In this document: positions 1-5,549 of the stretch, piece by piece
Layout of the letters: the number at the start of each line of letters is the position of its first letter
How positions within the stretch are numbered: the first letter of the stretch is position 1
Source of the DNA: Candidatus Hydrogenedens sp.
GTDB taxonomy: Bacteria; Hydrogenedentota; Hydrogenedentia; Hydrogenedentales; Hydrogenedentaceae
NCBI GenBank assembly: GCA_049968235.1
Contig: JBMFRC010000042.1
Location: forward strand, 1-5,549
Reading direction: 5' to 3'
DNA: 5,549 nucleotides
Program-made: the position numbers and the translations under genes
The notes under the pieces: model-generated
Seen by the model: the letters and a program-made list of their open reading frames with translations, nothing else
What the model was told of the DNA's origin: nothing
The model's database searches: none

Positions 1-396
<396 letters not shown>

Positions 397-500
397 ATGT
401 TATCATAAGCCAGATATATTCCCTACGAGTTCATGTCGCTTATTCTTGCACTCCTTGCATTCGCTGTCGAAAGTTTTTATAAAGTTTAATATATAAGTTT

Positions 501-617
<117 letters not shown>

Positions 618-632
618 TTTTTATTTAAACTG

Positions 633-688
633 TGATGAGATGAAAAATCCATACCTTTTACCAGATTATCATCTCATTTTGTTTTTTT
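633..688 (+). terminator. Putative rrn operon terminator (hairpin + T-run)
   Basis: Inverted repeat 'gatgagatga' (634-643) / 'tcatctcatt' (669-678): 9 Watson-Crick pairs plus a G-U. It is immediately followed by 'ttgttttttt' (679-688). The loop is unusually long (~25 nt), so confidence is moderate. Confidence 0.4.
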
Positions 689-838
689 AGTGCAGGTCTA
701 AATTATTATAAATATAAAATAAGGCTACGATTTGTTTTATACTTATATTATATGAGATGTAAATAATTGTAAATTCTACAATTTATTTTCTCCTTCCACT
801 ACTTATAATTGCTTTATACTCCTCCAAAATTTTGTTTC

Positions 839-867
839 TTGATGCATAATTCATATAGAATTATAAA
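839..867 (+). promoter_or_regulatory. Possible sigma70-type promoter for the isomerase gene: TTGATG, 17-nt spacer, TATAAA
   Basis: 'ttgatg' at 839-844, a 17-nt spacer, then 'tataaa' at 862-867, ~25 nt upstream of the ATG at 891. The SD-like 'aaggga' lies ~9 nt before the ATG. The region is very AT-rich, so chance matches are likely. Confidence 0.25.
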
Positions 868-890
868 AACATAACATAAGGGAAATATCT

Positions 891-2396
891 ATGAATACAT
901 CAAATCAAGAATCAAAAAAGTTTTCGTCCTGTTTCTCAGGTTGTTCACGCAGGCAATTCATTCTGGCTTCGGCAGGTATGGTGGCAGTGGCTAATCTGCC
1001 GATTTATGGGAAATCTATTGTTGAGCAGGGACCCTTGGCTGAGTTACAGATTAAGAGTAAGGTTAGGGTAGGAAAAATGTATGTCGGTATTCCCAGCCCC
1101 GGTTGGCCTATGCATCTGGTTGACCTGAAAGCGGAAGTAAACCGATATGAACAGGAAATATCGAAACTCAAAGAACAACTTGCTGATATTGAATTTGTGG
1201 AAGGTGGGCTGGTTACAAATCAAGATGAACTTGCAAAAGCAAAAGAAAAGTTTGGGGATGTGACGGGGATATTGGTTCTGCATCTGACTTTAGGCACAGG
1301 CGGGCTGATTTCAGGGTTGTTTGACATGAACAAGCCTGTGATGATTTTTACCATGCCGTATTGTGGGCATGAATGGCATATTGTTCCATCGTGGCAGAGG
1401 GAAGGAAAAATTGTGGATATAGTTCCAAGCAGTCAATATGCAGATATTGCTGAAGCGGTGAAACCGTTCCGTGCTATTCAAAGACTAAAAGAGACACGAA
1501 TACTCCATGTAAACTATGGTGAAGCAGACCCGCAATATTGTGCTTCTATTAAGGAGAAATTTGGAACTGAAATCATTACAGTAACACTTCCGGAACTTGA
1601 AAAGGCTTACGAGGAAGCATCCGAAGAAGAGGTGCTTGCTGATACAGAAAGATGGATTAAAGAAGCGGAGAAAATTGTTGAGCCCGGTAATGAAGATATA
1701 AAAAAAGGGGCGAGAATGTATATTGCTATGAAGAATCTTATGAAGAATTACAAGGCACAAGCCATTACAATGAATTGTTTAGGTATGAAATTAATGGAAA
1801 GGAATATGGGCTATCCGTGTTTAGGCTTTGTTCGATTAAATAATTCCTTGCTTGCAGGTGTGTGTGAGGCAGACCTGAAATCTACAATGACACAACTACT
1901 ATTTACCTATCTCGTGGGACGCACAGGTTTTGTTACTGACCCGATGTTTGACCTTTCAAATAATACAATCATACATGCCCATTGTGTCGCAGCGACACAG
2001 ATGAAAGGTCCGAATACCGAGCCTTCCCCTTACATAGTGAGAACTCATTTAGAGGACAATAGAGGCGTTTCACTGCAAGTGAAGATGCCTGTCGGCGAAA
2101 AAGTAACTATGGCACGACTAATAGGTAGCGATATATTGCTGTATAGCACCGGTGATGCCATCGATAGTCCACTTGAAGAGCGTGGCTGTAGAAGTAAATT
2201 AACGGTAAAAGTGGATAATATAGATAATTTCCTATATAACTGGTCATGTGGACTACATCGTGTAATCTTTTATGGTGACCACACAAGGGATATAGAACGC
2301 TATTGCAGGTTAACAAGAATTAAAATCCTCCGCGAAGGGATTGATAATCTCCATCATGTCGAAGGACTTGAATGGAACCCCAATGTCCATGCATAG
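891..2396 (+). CDS. L-arabinose/L-fucose isomerase family (AraA/FucI superfamily) sugar isomerase with N-terminal twin-arginine (Tat) signal peptide
   Basis: 501-aa ORF with ATG at 891 and TAG at 2394-2396. The N-terminus 'SCFSGCSRRQFILASAGMVAVANLPIYG' is a canonical Tat motif (S-R-R-x-F-[IL]) followed by a hydrophobic h-region. The core 'GVCEADLKSTMTQLLFTYLVGRTGFVTDPMFD' resembles the AraA metal-site motif 'GEGDWKTAALLRIM...TSFMEDYTY', and 'TIIHAHCVAATQM' resembles the AraA His-containing strand. Antisense ORFs inside it are AT-rich junk. Confidence 0.8.
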   Translation: MNTSNQESKKFSSCFSGCSRRQFILASAGMVAVANLPIYGKSIVEQGPLAELQIKSKVRVGKMYVGIPSPGWPMHLVDLKAEVNRYEQEISKLKEQLADIEFVEGGLVTNQDELAKAKEKFGDVTGILVLHLTLGTGGLISGLFDMNKPVMIFTMPYCGHEWHIVPSWQREGKIVDIVPSSQYADIAEAVKPFRAIQRLKETRILHVNYGEADPQYCASIKEKFGTEIITVTLPELEKAYEEASEEEVLADTERWIKEAEKIVEPGNEDIKKGARMYIAMKNLMKNYKAQAITMNCLGMKLMERNMGYPCLGFVRLNNSLLAGVCEADLKSTMTQLLFTYLVGRTGFVTDPMFDLSNNTIIHAHCVAATQMKGPNTEPSPYIVRTHLEDNRGVSLQVKMPVGEKVTMARLIGSDILLYSTGDAIDSPLEERGCRSKLTVKVDNIDNFLYNWSCGLHRVIFYGDHTRDIERYCRLTRIKILREGIDNLHHVEGLEWNPNVHA

Positions 2397-2624
2397 ATTA
2401 TTGAAAAGAAACAAAGGATGAAATTATATTTTCCTGTTGTATTTTATTGCAAAAAAAAATTGAACAACAAAACCCTGCATAACAAAGTTAAATAATTTAA
2501 CAGCAATTCTTTATTTGCACATTCTTTAAATTTATGAAGTTATATACTGCCAAAATATATCACAATTTAATTGTTAACATAAATTTATTTTGAGAGTTCT
2601 TTTTGTTTTGTCGTCATTTTTGAA

Positions 2625-3398
2625 TCAATCGTTTTTTTTAATAGTCTCTGCCAATTCTATTTCATCAAATAAGGTTTTCCAGCCTATTACAGGTACGCCA
2701 TCTTTTATTTCTGGCGGAGAATGGTGCTTAAGTATTACGAGTATAGGGATGGACATTCTTCCTAATATTTCAGATTGAGCCTTAATTTTATTGATTTTAT
2801 TGGTTATAGTAAAACTACGTTTAGATACTTTGCAAGCTATTACTAAATAGCTTTGTTCAAAAACACAGGCTATATCTATTTCACTTTTAAATGCATGGCC
2901 TTGATATTCTTCATTTATGTTTCTCTGATTCTCTTCTGACCATTTTGTTTTTATCCCTAATCGAATTTGCTTACAACCTATTTTCTCAAATGCAAATGCG
3001 GTTAATTCTTCAAAAAAGTGTCCATCACTCCTCTTAGCCTCTAATATGTGGTCAATATCATTATCTATTTCTTCTGCAGTTAATATTTTATTCTTCAATA
3101 CTTTATCTTTTAAGTTTTTGAATTTGGTAATGAAATTTTGGTAGAGACTTTTTTTGTCATTATTCAATGTTTTCCCTATATTTTTGATATCATCTTTCAT
3201 TTGTAATACTATTACTAAAGGAGGTTCCTTTAATGGTATTTTTTCAGAACCATCTAATAAATCAATGGTATTAGTACTATTATTAATAGAATATATCTTT
3301 CCATGTTGTTTTATTCCCCAAAAACTTAGTACTCCAGCATGAGATTTTGGTCCGGGTGTTATATTTATGATTGCTTCTCCATTCCCAAACATCTTCAT
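2625..3398 (-). CDS. Hypothetical protein; C-terminal half resembles an Mrr-type PD-(D/E)xK restriction-endonuclease fold (possible nuclease effector)
   Basis: 257-aa ORF, 77 nt downstream of the CARF gene on the same strand. Segment 'FEELTAFAFEKIGCKQIRLG...QGHAFKSEIDIACVFEQSYLVIACKVSKRSFTITNK...ILGRMSIPILVIL' matches the Mrr_cat layout: a helix with FE..l....L...GY, a Gly + hhhD strand (EIDIA), then hh.xCK (IACK). Motif III has Ala where Q/E is usual. The N-terminal ~110 aa (K-rich linker) is of unknown function. Weak RBS. Confidence 0.6.
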   Translation of the reverse strand: MKMFGNGEAIINITPGPKSHAGVLSFWGIKQHGKIYSINNSTNTIDLLDGSEKIPLKEPPLVIVLQMKDDIKNIGKTLNNDKKSLYQNFITKFKNLKDKVLKNKILTAEEIDNDIDHILEAKRSDGHFFEELTAFAFEKIGCKQIRLGIKTKWSEENQRNINEEYQGHAFKSEIDIACVFEQSYLVIACKVSKRSFTITNKINKIKAQSEILGRMSIPILVILKHHSPPEIKDGVPVIGWKTLFDEIELAETIKKND

Positions 3399-3475
3399 AT
3401 TATATAAATTAAATCCTGTAATATCTGTTGGTAATGATTGTAAGCCTCTTACTTGATTCGGTAAATTAATTTTAC

Positions 3476-3976
3476 CTATTTAATTTTTTCGATAACTTTA
3501 TTCACCCGTGAATCATCATAAGTATAAATTATACAAAGATTTGAATAGTTGTGAGTATACATCACCTTCAAGGTGTTTATTAATTCAGGACTCATTACAA
3601 CATATAAAGTAGAACCTTCTTTAGGTTCTTTTATTATTTCTGGTGAATTTATTTTTTTTGATAAATCAACAGAAAATGTAGATTTATTATTTGTTTTCTC
3701 TAAATAATTTCCAAATTCATTGAGATTACTAAATATTTTAACATCTCCTATTGCCTCTGATTGAAATCTTTCCTTAGTCCTAGTATCTTTAGTCTTAGGA
3801 TATTTTTTAATGATAATAGTTTCATAACTATGAAGTTCTTTTAACTGTTTACGATCCTTTCCACAAAATGCGATAATTTTACGAACTTTGTCTAATTCGT
3901 ATGAATCTATACTTATTATAAGTTTTAAGAAATTATTTTTAGAGATAATAAAATCGAATACAATATTTTCAAGCAT
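3476..3976 (-). CDS. C-terminal fragment (166 aa from first ATG) of the frameshifted CARF-domain protein; C-terminal domain of unknown function
   Basis: ORF from ATG 3976 to the stop at 3476. The same frame stays open upstream to 4192 with protein-like sequence and no canonical start, so the true gene is longer. Contains 'DRKQLKELH' (R-x6-H), a weak HEPN-like hint only. Confidence 0.45.
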   Translation of the reverse strand: MLENIVFDFIISKNNFLKLIISIDSYELDKVRKIIAFCGKDRKQLKELHSYETIIIKKYPKTKDTRTKERFQSEAIGDVKIFSNLNEFGNYLEKTNNKSTFSVDLSKKINSPEIIKEPKEGSTLYVVMSPELINTLKVMYTHNYSNLCIIYTYDDSRVNKVIEKIK

Positions 3977-4295
3977 TATCGCCGTAGATGATTGTTTTCC
4001 TGCTTCCCGTGGTATTTTTAATGATTTAAAATTCCCTTCTCTTTGTTTACATTTATATTCAACTCCCTGGATAGCTAAAATATCTAAAGGTTCTAACTCA
4101 ATACAAGGATTTAATTCTTTATATTCACCATTATTTAAGTTAAGAGACCATATAGATTCCCTTTCTGAATATATGAAGTTTAAATGGGGGGATTAAATGT
4201 TTTTAAGTATTGAAAGACAAAACTGGCAACCTGATGGTTCATCCCTCCAGCCAGATTGAAATATATCTCCTCATCTTTATCAACAGGGATGTCTT

Positions 4296-4508
4296 TTATA
4301 TTAAAAATTGGAGCGACAATTTGTTTTGAATTTCTAATTTTGGATTCTGTTTTAACAACTGAGAAGAGATTTTATCTGTTTGTTCAGCAGTTATTTCTGT
4401 ATGTAAAAGTAAAAATTTGCATCGCGATTTTTCTAAATTTAATACAGATAGAGCAGAGTTTAGTGTTCCCATAACCTGTGTACCTACAAAAGAAATAAAT
4501 TGAGCCAT
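4296..4508 (-). CDS. N-terminal fragment (70 aa) of the frameshifted CARF-domain protein, as an ORF caller would report it
   Basis: ATG at 4508 preceded by 'aggagattaaaa'. Encodes CARF beta1-alpha1-beta2 ('FISFVGTQ...CKFLLLHTEITAEQ'). Terminates at TAA 4296-4298 only because of the upstream frameshift. Confidence 0.5.
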   Translation of the reverse strand: MAQFISFVGTQVMGTLNSALSVLNLEKSRCKFLLLHTEITAEQTDKISSQLLKQNPKLEIQNKLSLQFLI

Positions 4509-4514
4509 TTTTAA

Positions 4515-4520
4515 TCTCCT
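4515..4520 (-). promoter_or_regulatory. Shine-Dalgarno sequence (AGGAGA) of the CARF gene
   Basis: + strand 'tctcct' is 'aggaga' on the - strand, 7 nt upstream of the ATG at 4508. Confidence 0.6.
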
Positions 4521-4563
4521 ATATTCAATTTAATTAACTTTTAATTTATTTTATCTCTATTAT

Positions 4564-4605
4564 GTTATTAAATCAAAAAAATAGCCCTCTGTGCGGGGAA
4601 AATCC
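4564..4605 (-). terminator. Rho-independent terminator of the PASTA-domain gene
   Basis: Perfect 11-bp inverted repeat 'atagccctctg' (4571-4581) / 'cagagggctat' (4595-4605) with a 13-nt loop. On the - strand the stem is followed by a T7 run (A-run 4564-4570 on +). It lies 54 nt downstream of the stop at 4659. Confidence 0.65.
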
Positions 4606-4658
4606 AGAGGGCTATGTATGTTGTGACAGAAAGTTTTCTCCCTGATGGGACTGAATGT

Positions 4659-5549
4659 TTAATTGTGCGTGTGTTTGCGTTTCCGTGTTTGAACGAGGAG
4701 TAGTCCGGAAAGGATAGTTAGCATTACCCAATCGCCTGTGTTGGAGTTATCCGATGAACTATGGGTTCCACAAGAAACGATAAATCTGCGTTTCTTACCC
4801 TTGCTAACAATTAAATCCACAGGGGTATCCTTTGCAACTCGCGCACCTGCTTCTGGCGCCTGACTAATTACACTTCCTTTTGGAACAGTGTCACTATATT
4901 CTTGTTTAATCGTTCCTACAGTAAGTCCGGAAGCAATTATTTTTGTTCTTGCATCCTGTTCTGTCATCCCAACCACATTGGGTACTGAGATAGGGCATGG
5001 ACCTGTAGAAACTACGAGATTTACTGATGTTCTTTTATTAACTGTTTGTGCTGGTAATGGACTCTGACTAATAACATTTCCTTCAGGAACGGTATCACTA
5101 CATTGTCTTGTTATGCTTCCCACAACCAGTCCTATGGATGTTATTTGTTCGATTGCTGATGTCTCGGAACTACCAATTAGATATGGAACTGTAACCTTTT
5201 CGACTTCACCTTCCACGATACCTTCCGGAGTACCCTCTGGTGTCCCTTCGGGAGTTCCTTCCACGACGCCTTCCGGAGTACCGTCGGGCGTACCTTCCGG
5301 GGTCCCTTCCACGACGCCTTCCGGAGTTCCCTCTGGCGTTCCTTCGGGCGTTCCTTCAACCACACCTTCCGGTGTACCTTCTGGCGTGCCTTCTGGAGTA
5401 CCTTCGACTACACCTTCGGGGGTGCCTTCCGGCGTCCCTTCTGGCGTTCCTTCACCTTCTACAACTCCTTCTCCTTCTGGAGTGCCTTCGCCTTCAGGAC
5501 ATGGTCCTGTGGATACCCAAAGATTCACTAATGTTCCTACCTCTACAGT
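4659..5549 (-). CDS. PASTA-domain repeat protein (N-terminus outside the window; PknB-like Ser/Thr kinase or PBP-associated sensor not decidable), with a PEGT-rich repetitive linker and a C-terminal hydrophobic/basic tail
   Basis: The reading frame is open to the window edge. The listed GTG at 5526-5528 is not the real start: upstream codons continue '...TVEVGTL'. Two full PASTA units: 'VPYLIGSSETSAIEQITSIGLVVGSITRQCSDTVPEGNVISQSPLPAQTVNKRTSVNLVVSTGPCP' and 'VPNVVGMTEQDARTKIIASGLTVGTIKQEYSDTVPKGSVISQAPEAGARVAKDTPVDLIVSKG'. These match the PASTA consensus (vP.vvG.t..eA...l...Gl.v......s..v..G.Vi.Q.P.aG..v..g..V.L.vS.G). A third unit ends '...NLWVSTGPCP' at the window edge. The C-terminus is '...SSSDNSNTGDWVMLTILSGLLLVQTRKRKHTHN'. 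Confidence 0.85.
   Translation of the reverse strand, partial: TVEVGTLVNLWVSTGPCPEGEGTPEGEGVVEGEGTPEGTPEGTPEGVVEGTPEGTPEGTPEGVVEGTPEGTPEGTPEGVVEGTPEGTPDGTPEGVVEGTPEGTPEGTPEGIVEGEVEKVTVPYLIGSSETSAIEQITSIGLVVGSITRQCSDTVPEGNVISQSPLPAQTVNKRTSVNLVVSTGPCPISVPNVVGMTEQDARTKIIASGLTVGTIKQEYSDTVPKGSVISQAPEAGARVAKDTPVDLIVSKGKKRRFIVSCGTHSSSDNSNTGDWVMLTILSGLLLVQTRKRKHTHN
5190..5507 (-). repeat. Imperfect 48-nt tandem repeat (~5-6 copies) inside the PASTA gene, encoding (TPEG)3-VVEG linker units
   Basis: Protein 'EGTPEGTPEGTPEGVVEG' is reiterated. On the + strand the recurring unit is 'ccttccggagtaccctctggtgtcccttcgggagttccttccacgacg' with synonymous third-position variation between copies. The RK-rich ORF 5177..5365 is an alternative-frame artefact of this repeat. 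Confidence 0.8.

Follow-up and report, generated by a model that had tools for sequence, protein, structure and literature searches.

The 5,549-nt stretch of Candidatus Hydrogenedens sp. DNA analyzed here (contig JBMFRC010000042.1 of assembly GCA_049968235.1, positions 1 to 5,549 of the forward strand, called the window below) carries at 2625-4508, on the minus strand, what is probably a Can1-type CRISPR ancillary nuclease gene, left as the recently inactivated remnant of an orphaned effector. This region is one gene of ~1.88 kb with three 1-nt frameshifts and not a two-gene module, as a sequence-only reading of the same DNA had proposed when it paired a CARF sensor at 3476-4508 with a separate Mrr-like nuclease at 2625-3398. 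The Hydrogenedens copy belongs to the Can1-2 effector class, as a member that is frameshifted and orphaned, and does not represent a new architecture. The gene and its breaks are as follows.

2625-4508, minus strand: Can1-type tandem-CARF nuclease gene, whole; ATG at 4508, stop at 2625-2627; 628 aa when frame-corrected; a pseudogene as it stands
4319-4328, minus strand: frameshift site 1; tract CAAAACAAAT; shift from frame -1 into -3 close to residue 63
4186-4191, minus strand: frameshift site 2; C6 run; shift from frame -3 into -2 close to residue 108
3476-3481, minus strand: frameshift site 3; AAA then TAG, giving an apparent stop TAG at 3476-3478

One gene broken by three frameshifts

The region 3476-4508, taken for a CARF gene, is not open and spans three minus-strand frames (4508-4299, ~4371-4183, and 4192-3479). 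The 257-aa open reading frame (ORF) at 2625-3398 does not stand as a separate gene either, since its frame remains open upstream to 3479, the exact end of the preceding piece, and a tblastn alignment of an intact homologue runs through the boundary. Every break falls in a homopolymer tract and displaces the frame by a net 1 nt, and joining the four pieces yields a protein of 628 aa. At frameshift site 1 the intact orthologue P0001 has CAA AAA CAA AAT, and at site 3 the window reads ATT AAA TAG GTA against ATT AAA AAA GGG in P0001.

A search of 5.8 billion proteins returned four relatives only, and repeat searches with profiles A1 and A2 recovered the same four proteins again. Three of them (P0001-P0003) are uninterrupted, measure 638, 634, and 652 aa, and cover 100% of the corrected protein at 61, 51, and 43% identity, respectively. 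The homologue alignment is unbroken and conserved across all three frameshift junctions, the third of which sits in a highly conserved family block, KIxxGKIxLP...GLQ..TDITGFNL. When P0001 was aligned to the window by tblastn, the matches followed frames -1, -3, -2, and -1 in turn and covered P0001 residues 1-626. An AlphaFold2 (AF2) model of the corrected chain, built with 76 sequences, is a single compact fold with a predicted local distance difference test score (pLDDT) of 92 and a predicted template modeling score (pTM) of 0.92; an earlier run with 5 sequences had left the nuclease domain unresolved (pLDDT < 50). The single compact fold speaks for one gene and against two separate proteins.

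The alternative is a working split system, in which a CARF sensor of ~345 aa works together with a 257-aa Mrr-like nuclease, made as a protein of its own, in a stand-alone cyclic-nucleotide-responsive module with a new effector domain. Both parts do lie adjacent on the same strand, the minus strand, and the 257-aa ORF has an ATG and is called as a gene in the annotation of the metagenome-assembled genome (MAG). However, the "sensor" itself carries two further frameshifts, no homologue is split at that point, and intact relatives are all single chains; the dividing stop is a frameshift inside the conserved block. The boundary also cuts the second CARF domain (CARF2) in half. The 257-aa ORF begins in the middle of this domain with its NITPGPK motif at the N terminus, so its product lacks the first three Rossmann strands, while the upstream product lacks the NITPGxK half. 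With its start inside CARF2, this ORF falls short of a complete CARF unit and is not a whole nuclease gene. Lastly, the ~200 aa in which a new CARF-effector architecture had been suspected correspond to the nuclease-like domain of Can1. A split system is thus very unlikely, and a false lead is removed: what looked like a new split CARF-effector architecture is a Can1-type gene with frameshifts. The breaks leave fragments of 70, ~45, 166-237, and 257-283 aa. No fragment holds a complete CARF-plus-effector unit, hence the locus in the window is most probably non-functional.

Domain organization and conserved residues

The corrected chain divides into four domains, numbered here by residues of the 628-aa protein.

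4106-4508, minus strand: CARF domain 1 (CARF1), residues 1-135; motifs FISFVGTQ and FNLAGGMN; holds frameshift sites 1 and 2
3626-4105, minus strand: linker and middle nuclease-like domain, residues 136-295; alpha-beta-beta-beta-alpha-beta core in the AF2 model
3222-3625, minus strand: CARF2, residues 296-430; motifs LYVVMSPE, IIYT, and NITPGPK; split by frameshift site 3
2628-3221, minus strand: helical linker (431-496) and PD-(D/E)xK nuclease domain (497-628); matched by PADLOC CARF_PDDEXK
3009-3011, 2880-2882, 2874-2876, and 2829-2831, minus strand: catalytic-type residues E501, E544, D546, and K561, respectively

PADLOC scans of the corrected protein placed a Csx1 model at residues 41-157 and the CARF_PDDEXK model at residues 486-598. 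Neither the corrected protein nor the 257-aa ORF had a meaningful match in Pfam or NCBIfam scans, and neither database recognizes this tandem-CARF nuclease family; an MPM1 match in these scans was sub-threshold and was rejected as spurious. A phmmer search of the single corrected protein against the PDB found no match. The CARF claim of the sequence-only reading is nonetheless sound, given the Csx1 match, the matches of the family profile to ring nucleases, and the match of CARF2 to the CARF domain of Can2 (PDB 7BDV). The claim of a restriction-endonuclease-fold nuclease related to Card1/Can2 also holds, on the CARF_PDDEXK match at 486-598 and profile matches to 7bdv, 8bao, and 1xmx. The nuclease is of the Can2/VC1899 type, and membership in the Mrr family was rejected.

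The two CARF domains are detectably homologous, with an HHalign probability of 94-95% (94.9%) and E 4e-8, and differ in their motifs (FNLAGGMN in CARF1, NITPGPK in CARF2). To judge from their sequences, two such related, non-identical domains go back to a duplication. Between the middle domain and the C-terminal nuclease domain, HHalign revealed no sequence similarity; domain 2 of Can1 has likewise been reported to lack sequence similarity to its nuclease domain (PMC6981274). The middle domain falls within the whole-chain superposition on Can1.

Residue conservation was counted over 76 family members (alignment A3). G9 and G89 of CARF1 are invariant, as are P386, G387, and K389 of CARF2. In the nuclease domain, D546 and K561 are each found in all 76 sequences, position 544 is Asp or Glu in 76/76, and E501 is kept in 74/76. 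The conserved residues of the middle domain are F185, D186, N193, R210, and R220, with R210 and R220 each present in 70 of the 76. The window copy retains all invariant catalytic and CARF2 signature residues, together with G9, G89, R210, and R220. The residues S19, T42, and K99 that contact cyclic tetra-adenylate (cA4) in Can2 (PMC7969007) align to S307, T330, and K389 of the corrected protein.

Comparison with Can1 and related effectors

The same single-chain order of CARF, nuclease-like, CARF, and PD-D/ExK nuclease domains is found in Can1 of Thermus thermophilus (TTHB155, PDB 6SCE; PMC6981274). Foldseek superposed our AF2 model on 6sce with E 4e-19 and template modeling scores of 0.57/0.59 over 667 columns, in agreement with a single polypeptide that forms an intramolecular pseudo-dimer. 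The two proteins share the acidic ExD pair and the active-site Lys (E541/D543/K562 in Can1, E544/D546/K561 here). Can1 also needs R206 and R249 of its middle domain (PMC6981274), and conserved R210 and R220 occur in the middle domain here. As with Can1, members of the wider family are encoded next to type III cas genes.

At the sequence level, however, the two are far apart. Structure-based identity is ~10%, and the family profile, which was built from 50 members for comparison with the PDB, did not match 6sce even at E <= 10. The window protein matches the CARF_PDDEXK and Csx1 models of PADLOC and not its Can1 model. Can1 depends on K90 in CARF1, whereas CARF1 here reads GGMN, with Asn91 at the place where CARF2 has Lys389. 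The counterpart of Can1 E560 is Ser in most family members and Ala (A559) in the window. The window copy is, in addition, frameshifted and outside any cas locus. The middle domain also differs from that of Can1 in its fairly conserved Asp186 (61/76) and Lys199 (47/76; Ile199 in the window), whose positions resemble a D...xK nuclease motif. Structure-function work could draw on such natural variants, among them Ser at the position of the ExK glutamate, a CARF1 that lacks the lysine, and the partly conserved Asp/Lys pair of the "inactive" domain.

Can2/Card1/DUF1887 proteins (PDB 7BDV, 8BAO, 6WXW; PMC7969007) are sequence homologues of the C-terminal half, residues ~300-600. They are homodimers of one CARF-nuclease unit with two active sites, in contrast to the single-chain tandem found here. 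VC1899 of Vibrio cholerae (PDB 1XMX) is an intact protein with a single CARF domain, and its degenerate ligand pocket is not regulated by cA4 (PMC7969007). The reverse is seen in the window, where the CARF2 residues aligned to the cA4 contacts of Can2 are kept and the reading frame is destroyed. Csm6-2 (CARF-HEPN-CARF-HEPN; PMC11229360; PDB 9W3U) follows the same evolutionary logic, by which duplication and fusion turn a dimeric CARF effector into a monomeric pseudo-dimer. Its effector domains are HEPN RNases and not PD-(D/E)xK nucleases, and it matches weakly in structure, through the CARF domains only.

The wider family at type III loci

Searched exhaustively with a profile, 1.84 billion cluster representatives yielded 335 relatives (clusters at 50% identity), 122 of them at E <= 1e-30. 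Nearly all 335 are 640-700 aa long and matched end to end, and all intact homologues are single chains of 634-700 aa. The second half of the 50-member profile matches Can2 structures 7bdv (E 6e-13) and 8bao (1.5e-9), Cdn1 (8z4i), and VC1899 (1xmx), while its N terminus weakly matches the CARF ring nucleases Sso2081 and Sis0455. The CARF4--CARF_PDDEXK models of PADLOC match 46/50 family members; its Can1 model is touched by 9/50.

Loci were recovered by a profile search of genome contigs with subgroup A4 (12 sequences), which gave 13 wider-family loci in named MAGs of Desulfobacterota, Bacteriovoracaceae, Planctomycetota, and Succinivibrio. L017 and L019 are too short, leaving 11 informative loci with the following neighbors.

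L015, L018, L022, L024, and L025: Cas10, with Cas5/Cas7 of type III-D
L016: Cas6 and an RtcR-like CARF protein
L023: Cas7 of type III-D
L020 and L021: further CARF effectors only
L026 and L027: nothing detected among the ORFs tested

Cas genes, mostly of type III-D, therefore adjoin the nuclease gene in 7 of the 11 informative loci, from which it follows that the wider family is a type III ancillary effector family. Can1 was reported in 2020 as confined to Thermus (PMC6981274). This family, by contrast, occurs in Desulfobacterota, Bacteriovoracaceae, Planctomycetota, Succinivibrio, and Hydrogenedentota, and so extends the four-domain Can1 design beyond Thermus to a sequence-divergent family of 335 clusters, mostly from type III-D loci of Desulfobacterota. 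Two family paralogues lie ~1.7 kb apart in the Syntrophorhabdaceae MAG locus L020 (L020:235-2301 and L020:4059-6128). With the narrow-clade alignment A1, the scan of genome contigs found no relative, and the scan of metagenomes found 3 loci only, all of them already known.

A probable orphan clade around the Hydrogenedens gene

Domain, PADLOC, and repeat scans detected neither cas genes nor a CRISPR array anywhere in the 5,549-nt window. Within the Hydrogenedens-type clade, the nuclease gene directly follows the same giant TPEG-repeat/PASTA surface protein of ~1,900 aa in the window, L001-L006, L007/L008, L013, and L028. Its other neighbors are housekeeping genes (TrpA/B, GH94, RuvAB, PAS kinases, and rRNA). 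No cas genes occur within ~10 kb upstream in L001/L002, downstream in L007, or in the flanks of L013. The lack of CRISPR/cas context that had been remarked on is thus confirmed locally, for the window and for clade flanks of <=10 kb. Gene neighborhood differs between the two groups: the wider family adjoins type III cas genes in 7/11 loci, and the Hydrogenedens-type clade follows the PASTA gene with no cas gene found in these flanks.

The clade gene is AT-rich and fast-evolving and has undergone repeated independent decay. Its guanine-plus-cytosine (GC) content is 28-30% in every lineage, against 36-48% in the flanks, despite divergence to 43% protein identity; in the window, an AT-rich block of 26-30% GC spans ~2400-4560. 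Cas-linked family members have a GC content equal to that of their own loci. L009, a contig from a second MAG, starts just after the 5S gene, and contigs carrying P0001 end ~1.3 kb beyond the nuclease gene. Judging from these contig ends and from the rRNA genes at the start of the window, an rRNA operon probably lies near the nuclease gene in several lineages.

Inactivation or sequencing error

The contig L009 comes from a different MAG assembly (GCA_049969095.1) and matches window positions 645-5286 with 5 single-nucleotide polymorphisms (SNPs) and 0 gaps. With no gap relative to the window, L009 carries all three frameshifts, and its gene calls are the same pieces of 257, 166, and 70 aa. Moreover, the orthologue P0001 was assembled intact in at least six independent assemblies, which means that an equally AT-rich gene can be assembled unbroken; GCA_029552885.1 is a source of intact P0001. 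Damage is also found elsewhere in the clade. L028:511-2420 is interrupted by a single frameshift within an A6 run, and the piece downstream of it is P0004, the "464-aa homologue"; in L029:2250-2617 one frameshift falls within a T7 run; and L030:451-876 is a truncated remnant with residues ~56-202 only. The positions of the breaks differ among L028, L029, and L030, implying independent damage, and in the Hydrogenedens-type clade the gene is broken independently in ~4 of 7 lineages. Contigs that end in rRNA and coding repeats suggest short-read assemblies, in which homopolymer indel errors are few. On this evidence, we consider it quite likely that the frameshifts are a real and recent inactivation. 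Of the possibilities raised by the sequence-only reading, that of decaying cargo therefore fared well, with three frameshifts common to the window and a second MAG assembly.

Several observations weigh against this interpretation. All three breaks, and those of L028 and L029, lie in homopolymers, which are also sites of sequencing error, and a single study may have produced both MAGs in which the frameshifts are found. Counting private substitutions at invariant positions by leave-one-out gave 19/205 for the window and 14/203 for P0001, which is no clear excess; taken with the retention of the signature residues, this means that inactivation was either very recent or not real. As to the reading as a Can1-type nuclease, the position of the canonical ExK glutamate is A559 in the window, with Ser in 59/76 and Glu in 13/76 of the family. 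As to the orphan status, it rests on flanks of <=10 kb, and a type III locus may lie elsewhere in the genome.

These points lead to a rival explanation in which the living organism carries an unbroken gene, the frameshifts are homopolymer errors of sequencing or assembly, and a functional 628-aa nuclease answers a cyclase encoded elsewhere. In favor of this explanation, every break is in a homopolymer tract, all invariant catalytic and CARF2 residues are kept in the corrected protein, private substitutions show no clear excess, and the gene has its own ribosome-binding site (RBS) and promoter-like region. Against it stand the identical three indels in a second MAG assembly 5 SNPs apart, the fact that two of the tracts are merely 3-4 bases long, and the intact state of the neighboring genes on the contig, including a 501-aa ORF. 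The intact P0001 in at least six independent data sets, the contig break points that suggest short-read data with few indel errors, and the independent breaks in L028, L029, and L030 argue in the same direction. We regard an artefactual origin of the frameshifts as unlikely, and a functional intact gene in the living organism as improbable to a similar degree.

The three tracts could also allow programmed ribosomal frameshifting or transcriptional slippage, which would yield a low level of full-length protein and so keep a toxic nuclease tightly in check. The breaks do lie in slippery A-rich and C-rich runs, and other lineages are also broken in A6 and T7 runs. This model, however, requires three separate events in one gene; the break positions vary by lineage, and the sites are not conserved in intact orthologues. 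A stimulatory structure was not observed, although no search aimed at one was made. To our knowledge, programmed frameshifting is without precedent in the Can1-type protein class, and we give this model hardly any credence. Real and recent inactivation thus remains the preferred account of the three breaks.

Besides that of the window, the Candidatus Hydrogenedens MAGs are GCA_049969095.1 and GCA_049971155.1. On L010, the contig of a third MAG, 5 SNPs relative to the window are grouped within 93 nt of the nuclease domain (window 2857-2949). Each of them changes an amino acid (K>N, E>D, I>L, S>N, and E>G), and the group adjoins the end of the L010 contig. Relaxed constraint, differences between strains, or assembly noise where the contig ends could account for it.

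Proposed mechanism

The following steps draw on the biochemistry of Can1 and Can2 (PMC6981274, PMC7969007) and on residue conservation, with ligand and activity assigned by analogy. The intact protein would be a monomer in which CARF1 is followed by the nuclease-like domain and CARF2 by the catalytic PD-(D/E)xK domain, the two non-identical CARF domains forming one cyclic oligoadenylate (cOA) pocket. On detecting foreign RNA, a type III Cas10 would make cA4, which would bind between CARF1 and CARF2. The chain would then close, bringing the nuclease-like and nuclease domains together as a DNA-binding cleft, and the E501/E544/D546/K561 site would nick or degrade DNA in a metal-dependent manner, slowing phage replication. 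In a genome with no local signal generator, a toxic nuclease of this kind would come under weak or negative selection and be inactivated. The Hydrogenedens-type clade may thus provide a small natural example of the fate of a toxic cOA effector once parted from its cas genes.

The intact lineages (P0001-P0003) could be understood differently, as having long kept a functional Can1-type nuclease with no type III system adjacent. Such a nuclease would respond to a distant or non-CRISPR cyclase signal or serve a role outside defense, and homopolymer frameshifts would act as an on/off switch. We hold this to be unlikely.

Neighboring genes and signals

The remaining features of the window are as follows.

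1-396, plus strand: 3' end of a 23S rRNA gene; Rfam scan, model positions 2534-2925; the contig begins inside the gene
501-617, plus strand: complete 5S rRNA gene; Rfam scan
891-2396, plus strand: 501-aa ORF with a TAT-signal-like start and weak sugar-isomerase similarity
4509-4573, minus strand: AT-rich upstream region of the nuclease gene's own; promoter-like site at 4576-4548; RBS AGGAG at 4516-4520
4574-4615, minus strand: intrinsic terminator of the giant TPEG/PASTA gene; 11-bp GC-rich stem, 13-nt loop, U7
4659-5549, minus strand: C-terminal end (last 296 codons) of the TPEG-repeat/PASTA protein; Pfam PASTA 1.4e-31; runs off the window

Rfam and tRNA scans of the window detected the 23S and 5S genes only and no tRNA gene. 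The 501-aa ORF has a sub-threshold match to Pfam TAT_signal at residues 19-36 and weak, sub-threshold similarity to the central domain of L-arabinose isomerase and to sulfoquinovose isomerase. From sequence, it may encode an exported sugar-isomerase-like protein that lacks a curated family description.

Between the giant TPEG/PASTA gene and the nuclease gene stands the strong terminator at 4574-4615, which has a folding energy of -19 kcal/mol (z = -5.4) and was equaled in stability by 0 of 200 shuffles; a scan for consensus terminators overlooked it owing to the length of the loop. The promoter-like site at 4576-4548 is a consensus match only, whereas the RBS was read directly from the sequence. 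The sole tandem repeats in the window are coding TPEG repeats at 5197-5499, and a CRISPR array was rejected on this account.

The TPEG/PASTA piece in the window is 69-85% identical to L001:4144-9873. A full-length orthologue has no Pfam hit on record. The full protein, of ~1,900 aa, consists of long (G)TPEG/VVEG repeats and PASTA domains, and its C terminus, with FIVSCG followed by a hydrophobic stretch and then RKRK, resembles a C-terminal sorting signal.

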